DNA of 64,000 nt from a virus, in the IMG/VR virus record IMGVR_UViG_2878651225_000003; one strand, given 5' to 3'. Positions 1,079 through 36,570 of this stretch are shown here, in pieces. The notes under the pieces were generated by a model. It was not told the DNA's origin. It ran no database searches and was given only the letters and a program-made list of their open reading frames with translations. The position numbers and the translations under genes are program-made. The first letter of the stretch is position 1, and each line of letters opens with the position of its first letter.

Positions 1079-1252
1079 ATGTCAACCAAAAAAGAAAATA
1101 AATCACAACAGTACCAAATACGGCTTACTGATGAATTTCGCCAGCAATTGGAAGAACAAGCTAAAAGTGATGGCGATACCGCTTTAGCAACGTGGATTAA
1201 ACGAATTTTGCGCAAAGAACTCTCCGCGCGCGGCATTGAGCCGAAAGGGTAA
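1079..1252 (+). CDS. ribbon-helix-helix (CopG/Arc/MobC-like) DNA-binding protein
   Basis: 57-aa product containing IRLTDEFRQQLEEQAKSDGDTALATWIKRIL, a typical RHH beta-strand followed by two helices. Confidence 0.5.
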   Translation: MSTKKENKSQQYQIRLTDEFRQQLEEQAKSDGDTALATWIKRILRKELSARGIEPKG

Positions 1253-1554
1253 GGGGTTGATTTTAAAGCAAAGCCGAAAATTCGGCTCTGTACAGTGATT
1301 TCCTGATATTTCAGGAGATTCCAACGGCTCAAGGGAGTATGCCCAAATTTGGACACCCCCACCAAAAGAAAACTATTGCAATAATTTTCATATTGATTAA
1401 AATATTTATGACTTAAATTCATGTTTGGTTTTCTCTAAATTTTTCTAAATGTGGGTTTAAGTATCAGTAGGGTACTGAGTGCGTTACTGTGATCTTGCTC
1501 GTAGTTGTGAATATGATTATAAGTTTAGGCATATGCTTATAGTCATCTAGATTA

Positions 1555-2303: not shown

Positions 2304-3029
2304 ATAGGCAGACGAAGACTGCCTATAAAAACCATACGCTATGCGTATGGAATCAAAGAGCTTAAGCGATGAAAAGAAAAAATCCTCCGATATAATGAAT
2401 AAGGCTGACAACCAAAATTCAAAATATAGGAGGATATGCCAATGGCAAATAAATCCAATGACGATTCGAGTTTATCACACACAAGATGGAACTGTAAGTA
2501 TCATATAGTCTTTACTCCTAAATTCAGACGAAAAGCGATTTATGGGAAATTACGAATGGATATAGGCAGCATATTAAGGCAGTTATGTCATTACAAAAAT
2601 GTCGAAATAATAGAAGCCCATGCAATGAAAGATCATATCCATATGTTATTAAAAATCCCGCCAAAGCTGGCGGTATCAAGTTTCATGGGATATTTAAAAG
2701 GAAAATCATCGCTCATGATTTTCGAAAGGCATGCAAACCTAAAATATAAGTATGGAAATCGACATTTTTGGGCAAAGGGTTATTATGTAAGTACAGTGGG
2801 TTTAAATACAAAAGTTGTAGAGGAATATATCAGGAATCAGGAAAAAGAAGACATGATTCAAGATAATTTATCGAAGAAAGAATATGTGGACCCCTTTAAG
2901 GGGTAAGCCACAGAGTTATTGTGCAGTTGTCAGTCTTTTCACATGCCCCTTGAGGGGCATGTGAAGTACTAGGCCCTTATAGGGCAGCCGAAAAACCGCA
3001 CGTTTCACGTGCGGATTGTTATTTGGTTA
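2304..3029 (+). mobile_element. IS200/IS605-family IS, copy 2, in direct tandem with copy 1
   Basis: Same terminal hairpins as copy 1. Its left end abuts the right end of copy 1. Confidence 0.85.
2436..2906 (+). CDS. tnpA: IS200/IS605 family transposase TnpA
   Basis: Identical to copy 1 except for one aa (V63A). Confidence 0.9.
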   Translation: MPMANKSNDDSSLSHTRWNCKYHIVFTPKFRRKAIYGKLRMDIGSILRQLCHYKNVEIIEAHAMKDHIHMLLKIPPKLAVSSFMGYLKGKSSLMIFERHANLKYKYGNRHFWAKGYYVSTVGLNTKVVEEYIRNQEKEDMIQDNLSKKEYVDPFKG

Positions 3030-3377: not shown

Positions 3378-3721
3378 TTTTTTGCTCCTAGTAAATTAAT
3401 GGCGTGTTGAATTTCGTTGCCGGTGATTGGCACCAGCTCCAAATATTTTTTGTTGTGTTGCTGTTGATATTTCAATTTTGCGTTATAAAGCTCGGCCACT
3501 TTATGAATTTGTTCAGCACTTCCCAATAAATAACGGGTGTAATACCGCCCGGCTTCGCTTTTCTCTTTAACTCGCTCAATCTCAATATCTAAGGTTCTCT
3601 CAATTTCGTTCACCTCATTGCGGGCATTGAGAAAATGGCAATTGAAATAGGATTCCTTTTCGCTAATACCGATATGCGGATTAACAATTAAGGCTCTGGC
3701 CACGGTCATTAATCGGGTCAT
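3374..3721 (-). CDS. hypothetical protein
   Basis: Start at MTRLMTVARA, immediately after the alpA stop. Overlaps the downstream ORF by 4 nt. Confidence 0.4.
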   Translation of the reverse strand: MTRLMTVARALIVNPHIGISEKESYFNCHFLNARNEVNEIERTLDIEIERVKEKSEAGRYYTRYLLGSAEQIHKVAELYNAKLKYQQQHNKKYLELVPITGNEIQHAINLLGAKK

Positions 3722-3939
3722 TGGATTACTCCTCGGTTGGCTTTTTGTTGCTCGATCCATTCGTTGACTTCGGCTAAATCCCAACGGATAAAGTTGCTGG
3801 TCAAGCGGATAGGCTGCGGAAATTGATTTGTTTTGACTAACTCATTGAGTTTAGTACGCCCAAAGGACAGCATTGTCATTAGCTCGGCAGTGCTGATCCA
3901 TACTTGGTTTTTTTGGGGGAATTGTGGTTGTACATTCAT
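3718..3939 (-). CDS. alpA: AlpA-family phage/satellite transcriptional regulator (HTH)
   Basis: 73-aa product, ...TAELMTMLSFGRTKLNELVKTNQFPQPIRL..., characteristic of the AlpA/excisionase-like family found in P4-like and PICI elements. Confidence 0.7.
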   Translation of the reverse strand: MNVQPQFPQKNQVWISTAELMTMLSFGRTKLNELVKTNQFPQPIRLTSNFIRWDLAEVNEWIEQQKANRGVIQ

Positions 3940-5080: not shown

Positions 5081-5217
5081 AACGCCCCTTTCGCATTTAT
5101 CCTTAAGAGTGGAAACACGCCAACAAGATAAGGTGTCTTGCTTTCGGGGATCGGCCTAGGCGTGTTTGATACTTTGATTTTATACTGTTTATTTGTCGGT
5201 CTCAAGGCTGAATAACG

Positions 5218-23149: not shown

Positions 23150-24433
23150 TTAATTTAAGCTGTTGACTTCGCCACGGCGCAGTTCTGGCAGAACGTTATT
23201 CCAGCCATTGCGGTTGAGCTTGTCAATTTCGATATCTTGAGTGGCACGCACAAGGATTTTTCGGGCGCTTTCGAAGGTACGCTCATATTCGGTTGAACAA
23301 CCACATACAGACGGTGCGAAACTGGAACCGAGCTTAATCAGTGCAGGGTAGAGCATGCCGAGAATGCCACTCATGCGGACTGCGGCTTTCCAAAGCCAAG
23401 ATAAGGTTTTTAGTTCGTCTTCGGTGAGTTGCAGATTGAAGACTTTTTCAGGTTCCGGCAATGCCAGTTGTTGCGGTTTGTTTTGTCCGATTAGAATATT
23501 TTCAATTTGTTCATCACACCAGATAGCAAAGTCAACATTTAGCCATCGGGCGAAAGCAACTGCTAATCGACGGTGTAGCCAAGTTCCACCATTAACACCT
23601 CGGGTTGTTTTTAAAATACGGGATTTTTCCGTATTTAGTTTTTTACACAGTAATTCAATGTATTCTTGCGTGCTGTCTAAGCGTAACCATTCATTTGGTA
23701 GCTTGTTAAAATGCTTTGCAATCGCAGTTGCATTAAGAAAAGCATCGTTTTGGAAGAAAACTTCAGTGCCGTTGTAGTGGGCTGTGATGATATTAGCCAT
23801 AGCTAACTCCTTTGTATTTTTTGAGAGATTAGCCACATTTGGTTGAGGGTGGCGGGACTCACTCTCAGGCATACAAAGAAACCTGTTGCTAGGTATTCCC
23901 ATTAAGGTATTGTATTTCCCAGCTATCGACCCGCCATTGTCTTTTAGGCATAAAAAAACCGCAAGGTCTGTCGGGTGCGGAAGCCGCTTTGTATTTTTTG
24001 AGAGGGCTCCAGTATATTGTGGTTGATTTTCATTGTCAATCTTCTTTTCAGGTTCCGGCAATGCAAGTTGTTGAGGTTGGCCTTTGTGCATCGCCAAGAA
24101 CGCACGCAGTACGATTAAATGGAATTTTGGGCTTATCCAAGTAGCGTAGGCAAGTACTAATTCTTCGCAAGCCCATGTGCCTTTATTGATACCAGTGCGT
24201 AAGGATTTATGTGATACACAGATCTGTGTATCAGAGTTTTTTGATGTGCAGATCTGCACATCAGAATTTTCATTCTCAATTTCAGTGATTAAATCTTTTG
24301 TTGTATCAAGACGAATAAAAAAAGTTGGACGGTGTTTATCTTCACCACCACTTGCAATATGTAGATCGTTCAGCGAATAAAGATTTTCAAAAGTACGGAT
24401 CGGCGTATTTAAAATTGATAATTGAGTTGTCAT
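23150..24433 (-). CDS. tandem KilA-N domain ORF. May be two adjacent KilA-N genes read as one frame.
   Basis: Two paralogous KilA-N cores (…NKGTWACEELVLAYATWISPKF… and …NGGTWLHRRLAVAFARWLNVDF…), each followed by QQLALPEPEK. An AAGGAG RBS plus ATG lies at 23797. A hairpin plus T-run lies at ~23940-23975 inside the ORF. No in-frame stop separates the two halves. Confidence 0.55.
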   Translation of the reverse strand: MTTQLSILNTPIRTFENLYSLNDLHIASGGEDKHRPTFFIRLDTTKDLITEIENENSDVQICTSKNSDTQICVSHKSLRTGINKGTWACEELVLAYATWISPKFHLIVLRAFLAMHKGQPQQLALPEPEKKIDNENQPQYTGALSKNTKRLPHPTDLAVFLCLKDNGGSIAGKYNTLMGIPSNRFLCMPESESRHPQPNVANLSKNTKELAMANIITAHYNGTEVFFQNDAFLNATAIAKHFNKLPNEWLRLDSTQEYIELLCKKLNTEKSRILKTTRGVNGGTWLHRRLAVAFARWLNVDFAIWCDEQIENILIGQNKPQQLALPEPEKVFNLQLTEDELKTLSWLWKAAVRMSGILGMLYPALIKLGSSFAPSVCGCSTEYERTFESARKILVRATQDIEIDKLNRNGWNNVLPELRRGEVNSLN

Positions 24434-24569
24434 AATTTATATCCTTTGAGTGATTTTAATTGCCCTACTGTTGAGATAGGGTGATCGGGTGCTTCAACAC
24501 TGCTCAAAGTCAGCCTTTCGTTTTCCCTTGCGGTATTGTATGTACGAAACGCCACCCGATCATAAAATC

Positions 24570-32163: not shown

Positions 32164-32435
32164 AATTCATACTCCATAAACAGTGGCTTTATGCCCCAGA
32201 TTAGATTTTCCTTGACGGGCATTCCGTTAATTTGTCTGCGACGGATTTTCCGCTTTTTTATTTCAACCCTCACCAGCTCTTTGCTGAGATGATTGTTACT
32301 GCGCCAGCCTGTTTTGCATTTGTCGTTGCCGGCTAAATGCTCATAAGCGTAAAATCCGAAGCCCTCTTTTTCATGCGGAACGATTTTGTATTGATGTTCA
32401 ACAAATTTCGGGCTGATAATCTTGGGTCTCGCCAT
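32148..32435 (-). CDS. hypothetical protein
   Basis: 95-aa ORF. Confidence 0.3.
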   Translation of the reverse strand: MARPKIISPKFVEHQYKIVPHEKEGFGFYAYEHLAGNDKCKTGWRSNNHLSKELVRVEIKKRKIRRRQINGMPVKENLIWGIKPLFMEYELCNAQ

Positions 32436-32710
32436 TACTGAGCCTCTTTCATTTTCTCAACCAAGGTTAAAATTTCCGCTTGCTGTTCGGCGGTCAAATC
32501 TGGTTGTAAATCGCCGTTTTCGGCAATCCAATCCGCTTTAGCCTGTGCAATATCGGCTGTTAAATCAGCGGTATGGTTGTAGTGTACCGTGTTCGGTTCA
32601 AGTTGAGCGGTGACAGTGACAGGGGGACAGCTAACGCCAAGCATAATCGCTAACAATAAAGCTCCGATAATGTAAGTTGCTTTAAAGTCAAAAGGGTTTT
32701 TTAGTCTCAT
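32435..32710 (-). CDS. small lipoprotein
   Basis: MRLKNPFDFKATYIIGALLLAIMLGVSC signal peptide and lipobox. Confidence 0.45.
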   Translation of the reverse strand: MRLKNPFDFKATYIIGALLLAIMLGVSCPPVTVTAQLEPNTVHYNHTADLTADIAQAKADWIAENGDLQPDLTAEQQAEILTLVEKMKEAQ

Positions 32711-32723
32711 GTTTAAATCTCCT

Positions 32724-33791
32724 TTAATCAACTTCAATAAAATTTCCGTCTTCATCTAGCGTGTACCAAGTGTCGGGCTTAATGCCGTTATCGCCGATTT
32801 TTGAAGCTCGAATATGGATAAGTTCTCCATCGTCATTGTGATATACGCAAACGATAGCCCCCATTTCCGATGCTTTAGCTTTTGAGCTTTCGCCAAATGC
32901 AGCTGCAACGCTATGCTTTCCAGAAACTTCTGCTACTGACTTATAGCCAGTGTTTGTCGCTGCTGACTTATCGCCGGTATTTGTCGCTGCTGACCGTTCG
33001 CCGGTATTTGTCGCTGCTGACTTATCGCCGGTATTTGTCGCTGCTGACCAATCGCCAGTATTTGTCGCTACTGACTGATAGCCGGTATTTGTCGCTACTG
33101 ACTTATAGCCAGTGTTTGTCGCTGCTGACCGTTCGCCGGTATTTGTCGCTGCTGACCAATGGCCAGTATTTGTCGCTACTGACTGATAGCTGGAGTTTGT
33201 CGCTACTGACTTATAGCCAGTGTTTGTCGCTGCTGACTGATAGCCGGTATTTGTCGCTGCTGACCGTTCGCCGGTATTTGTCGCTGCTGACCAATCGCCA
33301 GTATTTGTCGCTACTGACTGATAGCCGGTGTTTGTCGCTGCTGACTTATAGCCGGCATTTGTCGCTACTGACTGATAGCCAGTGTTTGTCGCTGCTGACT
33401 TATCGCCGGTATTTGTCGCTGCTGACTTATCGCCGGTGCTTGTTTCTTTTTTGTCACCCCAATCAACCTTATCCATGATCCATTCAACAGCCTTTTCAAC
33501 TAGCGTTGGGATTTTGATTTCCGCCTCAATTTCAAGCGTGCCACAAGCAATTTTGGTATCGCCATCTTCTTCTTTCGATATTTTTCCGCTCGCTTTCACT
33601 CGCGCGAATCGGTTATCTGCTGGTGGGTAATAATTAAAAACATCAAGAGGGTATTCGCATGCGTGGAAACCCGATTCGCAAGCCTCAACCTTACCTTTAT
33701 GTTTAAAAGTTTTGCCGATTTCATATTGGTAATCTCGACATTGCAAATCCTTGTTAAATCCTTTGTATGCGATAATTTCATTCTTGCTCAT
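32724..33791 (-). CDS. tandem-repeat protein. About 25 copies of a nonapeptide S-A-A-T-N-T-G-[DYE]-[KQRW] lie between N- and C-terminal globular domains.
   Basis: ATG at 33791 (MSKNEII…). 27-nt repeats span ~32930-33440. The track ORF extends to a non-ATG codon at 33851. Confidence 0.6.
   Translation of the reverse strand: MSKNEIIAYKGFNKDLQCRDYQYEIGKTFKHKGKVEACESGFHACEYPLDVFNYYPPADNRFARVKASGKISKEEDGDTKIACGTLEIEAEIKIPTLVEKAVEWIMDKVDWGDKKETSTGDKSAATNTGDKSAATNTGYQSVATNAGYKSAATNTGYQSVATNTGDWSAATNTGERSAATNTGYQSAATNTGYKSVATNSSYQSVATNTGHWSAATNTGERSAATNTGYKSVATNTGYQSVATNTGDWSAATNTGDKSAATNTGERSAATNTGDKSAATNTGYKSVAEVSGKHSVAAAFGESSKAKASEMGAIVCVYHNDDGELIHIRASKIGDNGIKPDTWYTLDEDGNFIEVD
32930..33440. repeat. 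27-nt imperfect tandem repeat array (~19-25 units) in coding sequence
   Basis: ccggtatttgtcgctgctgac(t/c)(t/g)(a/t)t(c/a)g units. This produces long open frames on both strands. Confidence 0.9.
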
Positions 33792-33821
33792 GATATTTGT
33801 CTCTAATTTCGTGTAAAAAAA

Positions 33822-33848
33822 GCCCTCTTTCGAGGGCAAATAGCTCAA
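33822..33848 (-). terminator. rho-independent terminator between the tRNA and the repeat-protein gene
   Basis: gccctcgaaagagggc hairpin followed by TTTTTTT on the minus strand. Confidence 0.55.
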
Positions 33849-34004
33849 CAAAAGGAATCCGATTTAGCCACTCGGCAGGTGGTTTCTCTCTACCATCACA
33901 AACCGCACTTTTCACATTTCCCTTAATTCGCACTGAATCGGGTCTTTGCTTTCGCATTCGTCTCTTGAGATTGAAAATCGGTTCTTTGTAAATACGGTTT
34001 GCGA

Positions 34005-34081
34005 TGGTGGCCGCCACAGGATTTGAACCTGCTATCCTACGATTATGAATCGTCCGCTTTTACCAATTAAGCTAAACGGCC
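34005..34081 (-). tRNA. tRNA with CAU anticodon (Met or Ile2), prophage-borne
   Basis: 77 nt: GGCCGTT-TA-GCTT-AATTGGTAA-AAGC-G-GACGA-TTCATAA-TCGTA-GGATA-GCAGG-TTCAAAT-CCTGT-GGCGGCC-A-CCA. The cloverleaf is satisfied apart from a G27·A43 mismatch and G·U pairs in the acceptor stem. Confidence 0.6.
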
Positions 34082-34555
34082 AAAAGTGCCTGCATGCCCC
34101 CGCAGGCTAGGGCTGATGTCATCTTTGCTTGTCATTCGCATGTCATAACATCAGACTCTTGCTGAATTTGCGGTATGCCAATCCGCTAGTTGAAATTCCT
34201 TGAGCTGACTAACTCAGGATTCCCCTCTATTGGCTAGATAGAGGCTTTAGTATTAGCCAAGACATCAAAGATAAGTACGTCTATCTCGTCTTGCGTTGGC
34301 TAAGGTTTTTTATTACAAGTCCGTGGGGCGTTCGCCTTGCCCCCGACAGGTCTCAATCCGCATACTTCGGGATTTCCTTGGGATATAAGCAGCGCTGCCC
34401 TTGATCGTAGTAGCGCCTCTTTTCGCTACAATACGCACAGTTTTCTGCTTGGGGGTTACTCGACTTAAATCAGCCGATAACTTATATCTCGCATGAGTCC
34501 AGCAATGTTAAAGAGCGGTGAGATGTTGCGTTTCGCTGTATCTCGTTGGTATGGG

Positions 34556-34640
34556 TTGATTATCACAAATTGTGATTTTATTGTCAACACAATATGTGAT
34601 TTTTTTATTAAATAAAAATCACATATTGTGATAATTTTAT
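34556..34640 (-). promoter_or_regulatory. OL/PL: three ATCACA…TGTGAT operators overlapping a leftward sigma70 promoter
   Basis: atcacaaattgtgat (34562-76), aacacaatatgtgat (~34586-600) and atcacatattgtgat (34618-32). On the minus strand, TTGACA-17 nt-GATAAT. Confidence 0.55.
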
Positions 34641-34964
34641 GATTTCAAAAGAAAAATAGTTTGAAAAAATTTTGCTTGATCGCTGGTTTTGTGAGCTGTG
34701 TCACAGAGAAAGTTCGGCTGAGCTATTTTTTTTGGGGGGCATGACGATTTTTGATCACTGCACATTTCACTCCTTTCGATGTTATTTTTGGGGTTTATAG
34801 GATCGTGGTGCCTATTTAATAAAATCAATGGCTTATATTGATTTTTATTCAATTTAAGATCCACCTGAGCCCCACGGTTCCCAGTATCAAAAGGAGTGAT
34901 ATTGGACTTTTTAGCCGGCGCTTTTGTGGTTTTTGATCAAGGGTGGTTGGTGTGAATCTTGGGC

Positions 34965-34992
34965 AAGAAAAAGCCCCTGTATGAGGGGCTTG
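34965..34992 (-). terminator. rho-independent terminator of the cI transcript
   Basis: gcccctcatacaggggc hairpin followed by TTTTTC on the minus strand, about 70 nt downstream of cI. Confidence 0.6.
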
Positions 34993-35062
34993 GCGTTTTA
35001 TTAGGTTAAAAGCGGTTTATCCTTAAGCTGCTCAAGTGCTTTATTGCAATAGCACGTCCTAC

Positions 35063-35731
35063 TCACCGCTTCCGGCGATAGCTGCGGTGTTCAACCATCG
35101 TGCCAACTATCCGAATTTCTTCATTTAGTGATGATTTAACTGGATAATCTGAGTTAAGAGGCACTAATTCAAACTGTTCACGCCACAGATCGTCTGTACC
35201 GACAACACGATATTTTTTAAATGTGGCCTCATATTCACCATTTACTGCGACAACAAATTCACCGGCGATTGGTTTTATATTTGGATCAACGATAACAATA
35301 TCACCCTCATAAAATTCAGGCTCCATTGAATCTCCTTTGATTGTCAAGGCAAACGAATCCTCGGAAACTTCTAGGCCTGTCAGGATATATTCATAATCCC
35401 CGATGGTATCTTTAAGATCATTTATCCCCGTCCATGTTCCTGCCTGTACATGGCTGATCAGAGGAACACTGTGTGAACCTAATGTAGCAGGAATTACATT
35501 ATCCCCGCCAAATGCTAATTCAGCAGGATCTACCTTTAGCGCTTTTGCAATAACAGCTATATCGTCTAAATCCGGTGTTCTTGCGTCCGTTTCGTAGTTT
35601 GCAATTCTAGACTGCCCCCACTTTGTGCGATTTTCTCTATCATCTATTTTTTCACATAATTCTGCTAATTCTTTCTGTTTGAGACTTAACGTATTTCTAA
35701 ATAATTTAATTCTTTCGGATAGCAAACTCAT
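35063..35731 (-). CDS. cI: CI-type repressor (XRE HTH + S24 LexA-like peptidase)
   Basis: N-terminal HTH (LKQKELAELCEKIDD…), C-terminal S24 (…GDSMEP…GDIVIVD…K…). Confidence 0.85.
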   Translation of the reverse strand: MSLLSERIKLFRNTLSLKQKELAELCEKIDDRENRTKWGQSRIANYETDARTPDLDDIAVIAKALKVDPAELAFGGDNVIPATLGSHSVPLISHVQAGTWTGINDLKDTIGDYEYILTGLEVSEDSFALTIKGDSMEPEFYEGDIVIVDPNIKPIAGEFVVAVNGEYEATFKKYRVVGTDDLWREQFELVPLNSDYPVKSSLNEEIRIVGTMVEHRSYRRKR

Positions 35732-35862: not shown

Positions 35863-36075
35863 TTGATGAATAATATTGCAAAAATTAGAGGCGATATTGG
35901 TGTAACTCAAATTCAGCTCGCTAACGAGTTAGGATTTGGACAACCGCGTGTTGCTAACTATGAGAATGGATTACGAGTGCCTTCATTGCGCGATTGCCGG
36001 AAAATTGTTGCGGCATTAAACAAATTAGGGGCAACGGTCACCATCGATCGTGTATTTCCGCCGTCTGGTAATTAA
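35863..36075 (+). CDS. cro: Cro-like HTH regulator
   Basis: 70 aa, ..VTQIQLANELGFGQPRVANYENG.., divergent from cI. Confidence 0.7.
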   Translation: MMNNIAKIRGDIGVTQIQLANELGFGQPRVANYENGLRVPSLRDCRKIVAALNKLGATVTIDRVFPPSGN

Positions 36076-36123: not shown

Positions 36124-36570
36124 ATGAAGCACATACAGCAAATTTTGCACTTGGATTGCAAGAATAGTAGCGGCGGCATAACGGCGTTGGCGTTAGATCT
36201 TGGCAAGTCTGAGCGGATTTTATCAAACGAGCTGAACGTGAATATCGAGCAAAACAAACTCGGCTTTACGGACGCCGTAACATTGATTGGTATGACGCAG
36301 AGCAAGAAGACCGTTTCCGCAATCGCGCGGCAAATCGATCACGTTATCGTACCCACACCGAATTGTGACGGCAGTTGTGCCGATGTGGTGCAGCACTTTT
36401 TAGACATTTCAGCAAAGTGTGGCCAAGTCGGCGAGCGGATTAAAAACGCAGTACAGCCGGAATCGGATTTCGGGCGTGATTTGTCAAGGAAAGAGCGCTT
36501 GGAAATCTCGGAAGCGGTGGAATTGCTGATCGAAAAAGCGATCTGCTTGAAGCTGGAATTAGGGCAATAA
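36124..36570 (+). CDS. CII-like phage regulatory protein
   Basis: Sits in the cII position. 148 aa. Confidence 0.4.
   Translation: MKHIQQILHLDCKNSSGGITALALDLGKSERILSNELNVNIEQNKLGFTDAVTLIGMTQSKKTVSAIARQIDHVIVPTPNCDGSCADVVQHFLDISAKCGQVGERIKNAVQPESDFGRDLSRKERLEISEAVELLIEKAICLKLELGQ

Follow-up and report, generated by a model that had tools for sequence, protein, structure and literature searches.

In a 64,000-nt stretch of viral DNA (IMG/VR record IMGVR_UViG_2878651225_000003; "the window" below means this whole stretch), a lambdoid prophage carries a long leader between its early leftward promoter, PL, and the first protein-coding gene of the early-left operon. The leader combines a promoter-proximal hairpin, a boxA motif of the ribosomal RNA (rRNA) type, a conserved structured RNA of ~190 nt, and a tRNA gene. 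We propose that the leader, protected by boxA, forms the untranslated start of the early-left operon and joins an RNA to a tRNA; in our judgment this proposal has about an even chance of being right. The phage itself is lambdoid, encodes Q, and has no detectable N. The 190-nt RNA appears to be an undescribed family, which is absent from Rfam and from GenBank annotation. In the order of transcription, the features of the leader are:

34618-34632: OL3, a 15-bp palindromic operator (consensus of the three operators, ATCACAnnTnTGTGAT; from reading the sequence)
34586-34600: OL2, likewise
34562-34576: OL1, likewise
34559-34587, minus strand: PL, a predicted sigma-70 promoter (TTGACA, 17-nt spacer, (TG)GATAAT, extended -10; 11/12 matches in a promoter scan)
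34520-34544, minus strand: hairpin GAGAU..(GCG AAA CGC)..AUCUC, in a boxB-like place upstream of boxA (from folding)
34506-34516, minus strand: boxA, GCTCTTTAACA, which matches GYTCTTTAANA at every position; ~36 nt downstream of the inferred transcript start (motif scan)
34311-34502, minus strand: conserved structured RNA of ~190 nt (covariance model R1, 156 bits, E = 1e-42)
34082-34310, minus strand: structured, window-specific spacer of ~230 nt, between the 190-nt RNA and the tRNA
34005-34081, minus strand: tRNA with anticodon CAU and an encoded CCA end (tRNA-Met(cat) by ARAGORN; Rfam RF00005, 58.1 bits, gathering score 29)
33822-33837, minus strand: intrinsic terminator, GCCCTCGAAAGAGGGC followed by T7, 167 nt past the tRNA and just before the DUF7666 gene (terminator scan)
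33817-33790: promoter-like site, TTTACA-16-TATCAT, immediately downstream of the terminator (promoter scan)

A preliminary description of this region, which was made from the sequence alone, missed both boxA and the 190-nt RNA. It had proposed a highly structured non-coding leader that might be a put-like RNA, a nut site, a processed small RNA, or a tRNA precursor with a part in regulation. This interpretation is partly supported: it was right in kind, and it rested on the wrong features.

A conserved 190-nt RNA

Our covariance model of the 190-nt RNA has 193 positions, 55 pairs and 5 branch points, and it finds no second copy in the window. According to RNAalifold, the helices are a closing stem (P1), a 13-bp P2 that encloses P3, P4, P5 and a small P6, a hairpin (P7), and a 3' hairpin (P8). 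We counted covariation in 25 distinct sequences, which included a divergent lineage. Across the 55 pairs, 98.3% of the cells have standard pairing, compared to 30-39% in controls whose partners were slid by 1-3 columns. Both sides change in 19 of the 55 pairs (counting events that are not independent), while 500 shuffles gave 6.6 ± 1.5 such pairs, none of the 500 reached 19, and the slid controls gave 0-6. For instance, in the divergent lineage, P3 changes from UCGGCU/AGUCGA to GCACCU/AGGUGC, and P2, P7 and P8 change in step. The copy in the window has a compensatory change in P5 (AACCG/CGGUU to UAGCG/CGCUA) and also in P2. An exact-pattern scan of metagenomes for this P5 variant gave no match.

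While the stems covary, the loops and junctions are invariant. A pseudoknot could arise between two of the invariant single strands, GUAACCCC and GUCGGGG. The candidate is a CCCC:GGGG pairing between J3/4 and the internal loop of P8, where both strands are nearly invariant and no covariation signal is possible.

The 190-nt RNA does not appear to be translated. It contains the element CUCAUG, whose variable A/G has the look of alternative ATG and GTG starts. This base covaries with a U/C 145 nt downstream (11 A-U and 9 G-C), so the variation is the mark of a stem and not of a start codon. We considered a 9-codon leader peptide with a rare AUA codon, MRDI(N/S)YRLI, and rejected it because of this covariation and because it has no Shine-Dalgarno sequence. 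We found no conserved reading frame in the 190-nt RNA: its open reading frames (ORFs) of 41-43 codons differ in frame and are cut short in three lineages. The preliminary description stated that the leader has no ORF of over 20 codons, which is wrong. The list of ORFs includes several of 23-43 codons on both strands, such as 34313-34438 (minus strand, 41 amino acids). None of these are conserved, and the small ORFs of the leader have no match in PHROG or Pfam.

Nor does the leader match a known RNA family. In 34082-34560, nothing in Rfam 15 exceeds its gathering threshold, including the transfer-messenger RNA (tmRNA), 6S, RNase P, riboswitch, ribozyme, GOLLD, ROOL and Y-RNA-like families. When we searched 33700-35100 by E-value (up to 10), the only matches inside 34082-34560 were a chance-level match at the promoter edge (10.9 bits, E = 9.4) and an opposite-strand echo of the tRNA. 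The leaders of Aggregatibacter phage S1249 and Pasteurella phage Pm86, which we discuss below, likewise have no match in Rfam. The preliminary description was right to reject a full tmRNA, as neither ARAGORN nor Rfam finds one.

Could the region instead be decayed coding sequence or a neutral spacer whose hairpins arose by chance? The ~230-nt spacer, which lacks a homologue in the collections that we searched, and the short unconserved ORFs would be compatible with this. For the core, the neutral reading is excluded by the covariation. The core is nearly identical across mosaic phages, with the compensatory changes in 19 pairs, and it holds no conserved reading frame; also, even the spacer beats all 200 of its shuffles. 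We therefore find this explanation hardly credible. (The whole leader of 471 nt has a folding z-score of -2.6, and 1 of 100 shuffles folds as well.) These observations support the view that the 190-nt core is a structured non-coding RNA, as judged from its sequence alignment.

Because the 190-nt RNA lies in a 5' leader and combines several helices with invariant junctions and perhaps a pseudoknot, it might also be a riboswitch or another sensor that sets the level of the early-left transcript according to a metabolite or the state of the host. We see no expression platform, however. The 3' hairpin is stable, and it is followed by a tRNA, an ORF or unrelated sequence, with neither a conserved terminator nor a sequestered ribosome-binding site. 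The lack of matches to the riboswitch families of Rfam 15 also argues against a sensor, and we consider it very improbable.

The boxA motif and the leaders of related phages

We place the start of the PL transcript at about 34552, given the promoter spacing and given that the conserved leader keeps a constant distance from six other types of promoter. The hairpin at 34520-34544 begins ~10 nt past this start. Its predicted free energy is -6.0 kcal/mol (z = -3.5), and none of 200 shuffles is as stable. The boxA follows. GYTCTTTAANA is the boxA consensus for gamma-proteobacteria (PMC5725501), and GCTCTTTAACA is its sole match in the window, with both strands scanned. It lies on the transcribed strand and near the start of an untranslated RNA. 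On the other hand, 0.58 matches are expected by chance in 64 kb, which tells against our proposal insofar as a single match is about what chance would give. The significance of this boxA must therefore come from related phages.

By sequence comparison, 34320-34501 of the leader is 78% identical to S1249, and a 66-nt piece is 95% identical to phage Aaphi23; the region is unannotated in both. With scans for exact patterns we found 27 and then 67 contigs in IMG/VR and 78 contigs from metagenomes. With a nhmmer profile, we found 151 loci, each with a single copy, and 70 distinct full-length sequences, among which the window's version is unique. The carriers are phage contigs of the Aggregatibacter/Haemophilus type, and the prophages in the reference genomes of A. 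segnis and A. actinomycetemcomitans also carry the 190-nt RNA. Of 50,697 phage records in GenBank, just two have it: S1249 in full, and Aaphi23 with the first ~76 nt of the core.

In 82 of 88 distinct contexts from these relatives, GYTCTTTAANA is present upstream of the 190-nt RNA and on the same strand. In 56 contexts it is within 12 nt of the 190-nt RNA, and in 26 contexts, which we call the S1249 type, it is 600-825 nt upstream. It was not found in the other 6 contexts, 3 of which cover less than 600 nt of upstream sequence. The usual order in the relatives is CAUCAAAA, a hairpin, boxA, ~2-5 nt, and the 190-nt RNA. In the S1249 type, the same hairpin and GCTCTTTAACAA come after PL, and ~600 nt of ORF-poor RNA separate them from the 190-nt RNA. 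The sequence directly before the 190-nt RNA is off consensus in these phages (GAATTTTAGACAA in S1249 and GAAUUUUAGACAA in the S1249-type class). That the consensus boxA is found only at the head of the S1249-type transcript fits a signal that loads once per transcript.

What lies on either side of the 190-nt RNA is exchangeable. At least six unrelated types of promoter and operator, which imply different immunity specificities, each precede the same leader at a fixed distance. The hairpin before boxA is in the same place in relatives, and its sequence differs by phage group (at least four types). On the other side, the end of P8 is a mosaic boundary, with 92 distinct downstream contexts. A tRNA gene lies within 1.5 kb in 44 of the 92, nearly always starting 1-57 nt past the end of the model; the tRNAs are Met/Ile2-CAU, Arg-UCU or Lys-UUU. 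The contexts without a tRNA have unrelated hairpins or ORFs, and in 29 of the 92 contexts a strong intrinsic terminator lies no more than 1.5 kb away. From these comparisons, the 190-nt RNA behaves as an independent, exchangeable module. Because it is nearly identical in phages whose immunity regions and neighboring genes differ, its partner is likely to be conserved in the host rather than specific to the phage.

Among the promoters of these relatives, the OL/PL sequence ATGAACCATAGGTACAT of several phages (L026, L051, L015 and similar) resembles the PL operator region of phage HK022, ATGAACTTTAAGTACAT (L152, 4340-4400). This suggests a HK022-like repressor specificity in some phages of Pasteurellaceae.

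Other ORF-poor modules can stand behind the hairpin-boxA unit, as seen in S1249, Pm86, and Mannheimia phage 535AP2. Pm86 and 535AP2 share the design and lack the 190-nt RNA: after PL come a small ORF, then hairpins and boxA, then ORF-poor RNA (from several hundred to 1,250 nt), and finally tRNAs. In S1249, RNA-seq identified D11S_2259 as the most actively transcribed gene (PMC10087258). D11S_2259 is a 52-codon ORF that was called by Glimmer within the untranslated leader, between boxA and the 190-nt RNA, and it is probably not a gene. It overlaps a second conserved non-coding module (S1249 3440-3830, minus strand; Pm86 2466-2550). About 90 nt of this second module are 89% identical in Pm86, and these ~90 nt are also found in some 18 other loci.

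The preliminary description's suggestion of a nut-like site is supported by the promoter-proximal hairpin, the perfect boxA, and its recurrence in relatives. In its strict form, this would be a nutL site of the lambda type, at which an unrecognized N-like phage protein binds the variable hairpin or the 190-nt RNA and acts with Nus factors. At nutL, too, the PL operon begins with a boxA and a hairpin beside it, and the hairpin here varies by phage group in the way that lambda, P22 and phage 21 each have their own boxB. Also, N proteins, which carry an arginine-rich motif, are small, disordered, and difficult to detect by homology. The hairpin is on the wrong side of boxA, however, and a second boxA is missing: neither GYTCTTTAANA nor GCTCTTTAA occurs again in the 64-kb window, so there is no nutR after cro.

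The search for N itself is also discouraging for a lambda-type nutL. As the preliminary description stated, the prophage has Q and no recognizable N. Neither the small ORFs of the leader, where that description had considered a conserved N-like ORF, nor the first downstream genes contain an N-like protein according to Pfam and PHROG, whose reach a very divergent N could escape. (Lambdoid phages of Pasteurellaceae have been annotated with Q and without N; PMC4553209.) We clustered the ORFs that are within 5 kb downstream of the 190-nt RNA at 66 loci. Only one protein family travels with the 190-nt RNA (53 of 66 loci), and it is a membrane- or lipoprotein-like family of ~110 amino acids, represented in the window by 32435-32755. 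The first genes past the leader vary between phages and show no N-like matches, and the type of hairpin is not tied to any one set of downstream genes. We consider a lambda-type nutL with a hidden N to be improbable.

The tRNA and the early-left operon

The window is unusual among the relatives in that ~230 nt separate the 190-nt RNA from the tRNA. This spacer has a long hairpin at ~34255-34305 and others at 34224-34244, 34114-34155 and 34087-34106. The 233-nt stretch that adjoins the tRNA folds better than all 200 shuffles (z = -3.77). We found no homologue of the spacer in GenBank phages or, with exact patterns for two of its hairpins, in IMG/VR; comparing it to the relatives' loci with blastn matched the tRNA only. 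The four hairpins of the preliminary description do exist, and the one at 34114-34155 does enclose three TGTCAT repeats. The fourth is P8 of the conserved RNA, whose structure is supported by covariation; most of the others are in this lineage-specific spacer.

The tRNA was confirmed by both ARAGORN and Rfam. In an initiator tRNA, C1 and A72 are mismatched and the base of the anticodon stem is formed by three G-C pairs, while the identity of tRNA-Ile2 is set by the elements that TilS recognizes. In the Rfam alignment, position 1 of the window's tRNA is a G paired with C72, and three consecutive G-C pairs are missing from its anticodon stem; it is therefore not an initiator. Its nearest relatives in E. 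coli are annotated as tRNA-Ile (78% identity), and the records of related phages call it tRNA-Met. By its sequence, it is probably a tRNA-Ile2 (modified with lysidine and reading AUA) rather than an elongator tRNA-Met.

We noticed some peculiarities of the tRNAs and nearby hairpins in related phages. A small, conserved hairpin motif, GUGCGUGAC(A)U/ACCGGAGAGACGGU, recurs a short way before tRNA-Met(CAU) genes and within other leader modules (L004, L009, L016 and similar; S1249 ~2950-2990; Pm86 ~2470-2490). It may be a processing signal. Right after the 190-nt RNA in S1249, 2857-2944 (minus strand) is a tRNA-like gene with an anticodon loop of ~21 nt, CUUAAGAUAAAGGCUCUUUAU. It scores 44.8 bits with Rfam's tRNA model and is not called by ARAGORN; it may mimic a tRNA, or be one that carries a small insertion. 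In Pm86, the third tRNA of the cluster (1249-1327, minus strand) has a four-base anticodon, tttt. ARAGORN labels it tRNA-???, and it resembles a frameshift-suppressor tRNA.

The genes around the leader include:

34971-34991: bidirectional terminator, to the right of PL
35063-35731, minus strand: cI-like repressor with helix-turn-helix and S24 peptidase domains
35863-36075: Cro, divergent from cI
36124-36570: CII, divergent from cI
41080-41592: Q
32724-33791, minus strand: first protein-coding gene after the leader, with a DUF7666 N-terminal domain and more than 20 tandem repeats of 8 residues, SAATNTG[DYE][KQWR] (phrog_4433)
32435-32755, minus strand: protein of ~106 amino acids with one hydrophobic segment and a lipobox-like LGVSC (phrog_27152/16199)

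To the right of CII are Rha/Ant, lambda-P, Dam, NinG, Q, holin and lysozyme genes. To the left of the tRNA are the DUF7666 repeat protein, small unknown proteins, a RecE-like protein, RecT, and a YqaJ exonuclease. This gene order shows that the element is a lambdoid prophage and that the promoter is its PL/OL. The preliminary description had placed operators and the promoter at 34556-34640, and we recovered three operators there, which overlap the -10 and the -35 of PL. It was also correct about the terminator after the tRNA (33837-33822) and the repeat gene beyond it. The operator region (34562-34632) is 78% identical to the PL region of Pm86, and the exact cI protein was found in a single genome only. 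The product of 32435-32755 might be a lipoprotein that acts in superinfection exclusion.

At the far end of the early-left region, 24475-24561 (minus strand) matches sRNA-Xcc1 (RF02221, 69 bits), next to a gene for a KilA-N/P22 AR_C protein (23150-24433). S1249 has two matches to this family on its minus strand, at 622-705 (68.6 bits) and at 853-939 (47.3 bits, which is under the gathering score of 53). A second family of structured RNAs may thus recur in the left arm of these phages. Near the left end of the window, C4 antisense RNA (585-673), isrK (722-801) and the int-alpA RNA (5101-5166), all on the minus strand, are above their gathering thresholds. These point to another mobile element, with a P4/P1-type immunity RNA and an AlpA/integrase leader, that is unrelated to the prophage.

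We can now describe how the boxA-headed leader would work. When the cI-like repressor leaves the three operators, transcription would begin at about 34552, and the first 45 nt of the RNA would present the hairpin and then the consensus boxA. By analogy to rRNA operons and CRISPR arrays, boxA would load NusB and NusE (S10), along with NusA, NusG and SuhB, onto RNA polymerase. Rho could not then stop the modified polymerase across ~550 nt or more of untranslated RNA, otherwise an ideal target for Rho, just as boxA shields other long untranslated RNAs from Rho (PMC7665894, PMC5725501). The modified polymerase may also pass the terminator behind the tRNA and continue into the recombination genes. 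The 190-nt RNA is a modular unit that is exchanged as a block between phages of the Aggregatibacter/Haemophilus type, like the tRNA genes after it. Its most likely fate is that RNase P cuts at the 5' end of the tRNA and frees it as a stable species, which would act on a conserved host component. Where a tRNA starts within ~10 nt of P8, as it does in roughly half of the relatives, this cleavage would define the 3' end of the 190-nt RNA. The ~230-nt spacer in the window is probably just a processing or stabilizing structure. The tRNA(CAU), which is probably Ile2, would serve in decoding early in lytic growth.

Several observations weigh against this account. The transcript start, the processing and the dependence on Nus factors are inferred. 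Antitermination of the rRNA type acts mainly against Rho and may fail at the strong intrinsic terminator at 33837-33822, and the genes past this terminator have their own promoter-like site. Aaphi23 is a propagated phage and retains only the first ~76 nt of the core, so the 190-nt RNA may be dispensable. The alignment represents few lineages, with an effective sequence number of 1.04, which is why the covariation counts are of non-independent events. The main gap is that if boxA alone suffices for resistance to Rho, then the conserved 190-nt RNA would be left without a role.

The most novel possibility is that the 190-nt RNA belongs to an undescribed kind of phage RNA, which would redirect a host machine with no phage protein involved. 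This could take either of two forms. In the first form, the 190-nt RNA would be a large, RNA-only processive antiterminator that works with boxA and Nus factors, as a substitute for N in lambdoid phages of Pasteurellaceae. In the second form, it would be a stable early RNA that is released beside the tRNAs and binds the ribosome, RNA polymerase or a host defense nuclease. That one or the other of these is correct is a tentative idea, and we would sooner doubt it than rely on it.

How lambdoid phages of Pasteurellaceae that have only Q escape termination in their early operons has not been addressed before, and for the left operon this leader offers a testable answer. Antitermination by boxA, nut sites and phage tRNAs are each already known. 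A boxA of the rRNA type at the head of a repressor-controlled and largely non-coding early operon, in lambdoid phages of Pasteurellaceae that lack N, appears to be undescribed. Neither searches of the full-text literature nor papers about phages of Aggregatibacter/Haemophilus and Mannheimia gave a description of the 190-nt RNA or of boxA in these phages. The 190-nt RNA is common in phages from the human mouth and airway, and it appears to lie in the most transcribed part of S1249. Should it prove to modify RNA polymerase, phages would have a second kind of RNA-only antiterminator besides put; if it acts in trans, it would join the few structured phage RNAs that are linked to tRNAs. If either of the new forms is correct, then these phages begin lytic growth with an operon that is headed by boxA and made up of interchangeable non-coding RNA modules and tRNAs, an organization that has not been described before. 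In practical terms, the leader motif can be used to locate PL in these phages and to recognize ORF calls, such as D11S_2259, that are spurious.

Comparison with known systems

The put RNAs of HK022 (putL and putR), which are also found in HK639, phiEt88 and others, are ~70 nt with two stems, do not require Nus factors, and are present in both early operons (PMC9378689). Like putL, the 190-nt RNA comes immediately after PL in a lambdoid phage without N, and some relatives of this leader have HK022-like operator sequences. The 190-nt RNA differs in its size, in having about eight helices, in the upstream boxA on the same transcript (adjacent in most relatives), and in being present once. It has no significant likeness in sequence or structure to the put RNAs, whose conserved sequences are GUCGAACGGCGCGAC..UAAACCAUGCGUCGG..GGCGGGUUCAGGAUGAACGGCAAU.

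The 190-nt RNA might nonetheless do what put does: it would fold as it emerges, stay on the elongating polymerase in cis, and suppress pausing and termination without any protein, so as to replace N across the early-left operon. Besides the location and the presence of Q without a detected N, this would explain why the loops and junctions are invariant and why the RNA is nearly identical across differing immunity regions, which fits a conserved host machine as its partner. The strong intrinsic terminators in 29 of the 92 downstream contexts also fit. In the 7-kb HK022 locus, the best nhmmer match is putL (E = 0.022, with 14 kb searched), and 3 of 2,000 shuffles score as high. But this weak likeness is to the variable lower stem that is HK022's own, and it is absent from HK639, S9-5, CobraSix and PdC23. 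A profile of eight put sequences has no match in 11 leaders at E-values up to 100, and our covariance model of the 190-nt RNA finds nothing in eight put loci. Also, each locus has one copy, with none in the PR operon, while put has both putL and putR; in S1249-type phages the 190-nt RNA is ~600 nt from the start, behind another module; and the copy in Aaphi23 is partial. A put-like mode of action, which would involve factor-independent binding to the beta' zinc-binding domain, is unlikely in our view, with some real chance of being correct.

Homology to put is a separate question. The preliminary description had suggested a put-like RNA, and membership in the put family failed by the reciprocal profile, by the covariance model, and with the other put members, so we rejected it. 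The sequence UCUUUAAAC in HK022 looks like a relative of boxA; this is coincidental, as it is not conserved among put RNAs.

The leader resembles lambda's nutL in being the first element of the PL transcript, in having a boxA, and in belonging to a prophage with cI, Cro, CII, O/P-type replication genes, NinG and Q. The boxA of lambda is the weaker CGCUCUUA. In contrast, the phage boxA described here is of the rRNA type, its hairpin precedes it, no N gene follows, and no nutR was found. We found no boxB with a GNRA-like pentaloop just downstream of boxA, where the 190-nt RNA starts after ~3-5 nt.

GOLLD and ROOL are typically adjacent to phage tRNA genes. Like them, the 190-nt RNA is a conserved and ornate non-coding RNA from prophages that is found near tRNA genes. 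Unlike it, GOLLD and ROOL are 600-800 nt, are found in other groups of bacteria, and have Rfam models (with no match here), and the 190-nt RNA is fixed behind PL and boxA. As for the tRNAs themselves, other lambdoid phages carry similar cargo, such as ileZ-argN-argO in Shiga toxin (Stx) phages. As in those phages, the tRNAs here decode rare codons (CAU/Ile2, UCU/Arg and UUU/Lys) and are exchangeable. The tRNA genes of Stx phages lie downstream of Q, while those described here are in the early-left leader behind PL.

The closest parallel is the leader of rRNA operons (boxB-boxA-boxC, with NusA, NusB, NusE, NusG, SuhB and S4). Antitermination by boxA of the rRNA type, which confers resistance to Rho, is also known upstream of CRISPR arrays and suhB (PMC5725501, PMC7665894, PMC4807359). 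In both the rRNA leader and the phage leader, a hairpin is followed by GYTCTTTAANA near the start of the transcript, and the transcript is long, untranslated and structured, and includes tRNA. The phage leader differs in that it is under a repressor-controlled early promoter, no boxC was identified, and its boxA precedes the 190-nt RNA and then protein-coding early genes; its dependence on Nus factors is proposed by analogy. On balance, the best reading of these likenesses is that the head of the early-left operon is organized like a small operon of the rRNA type.

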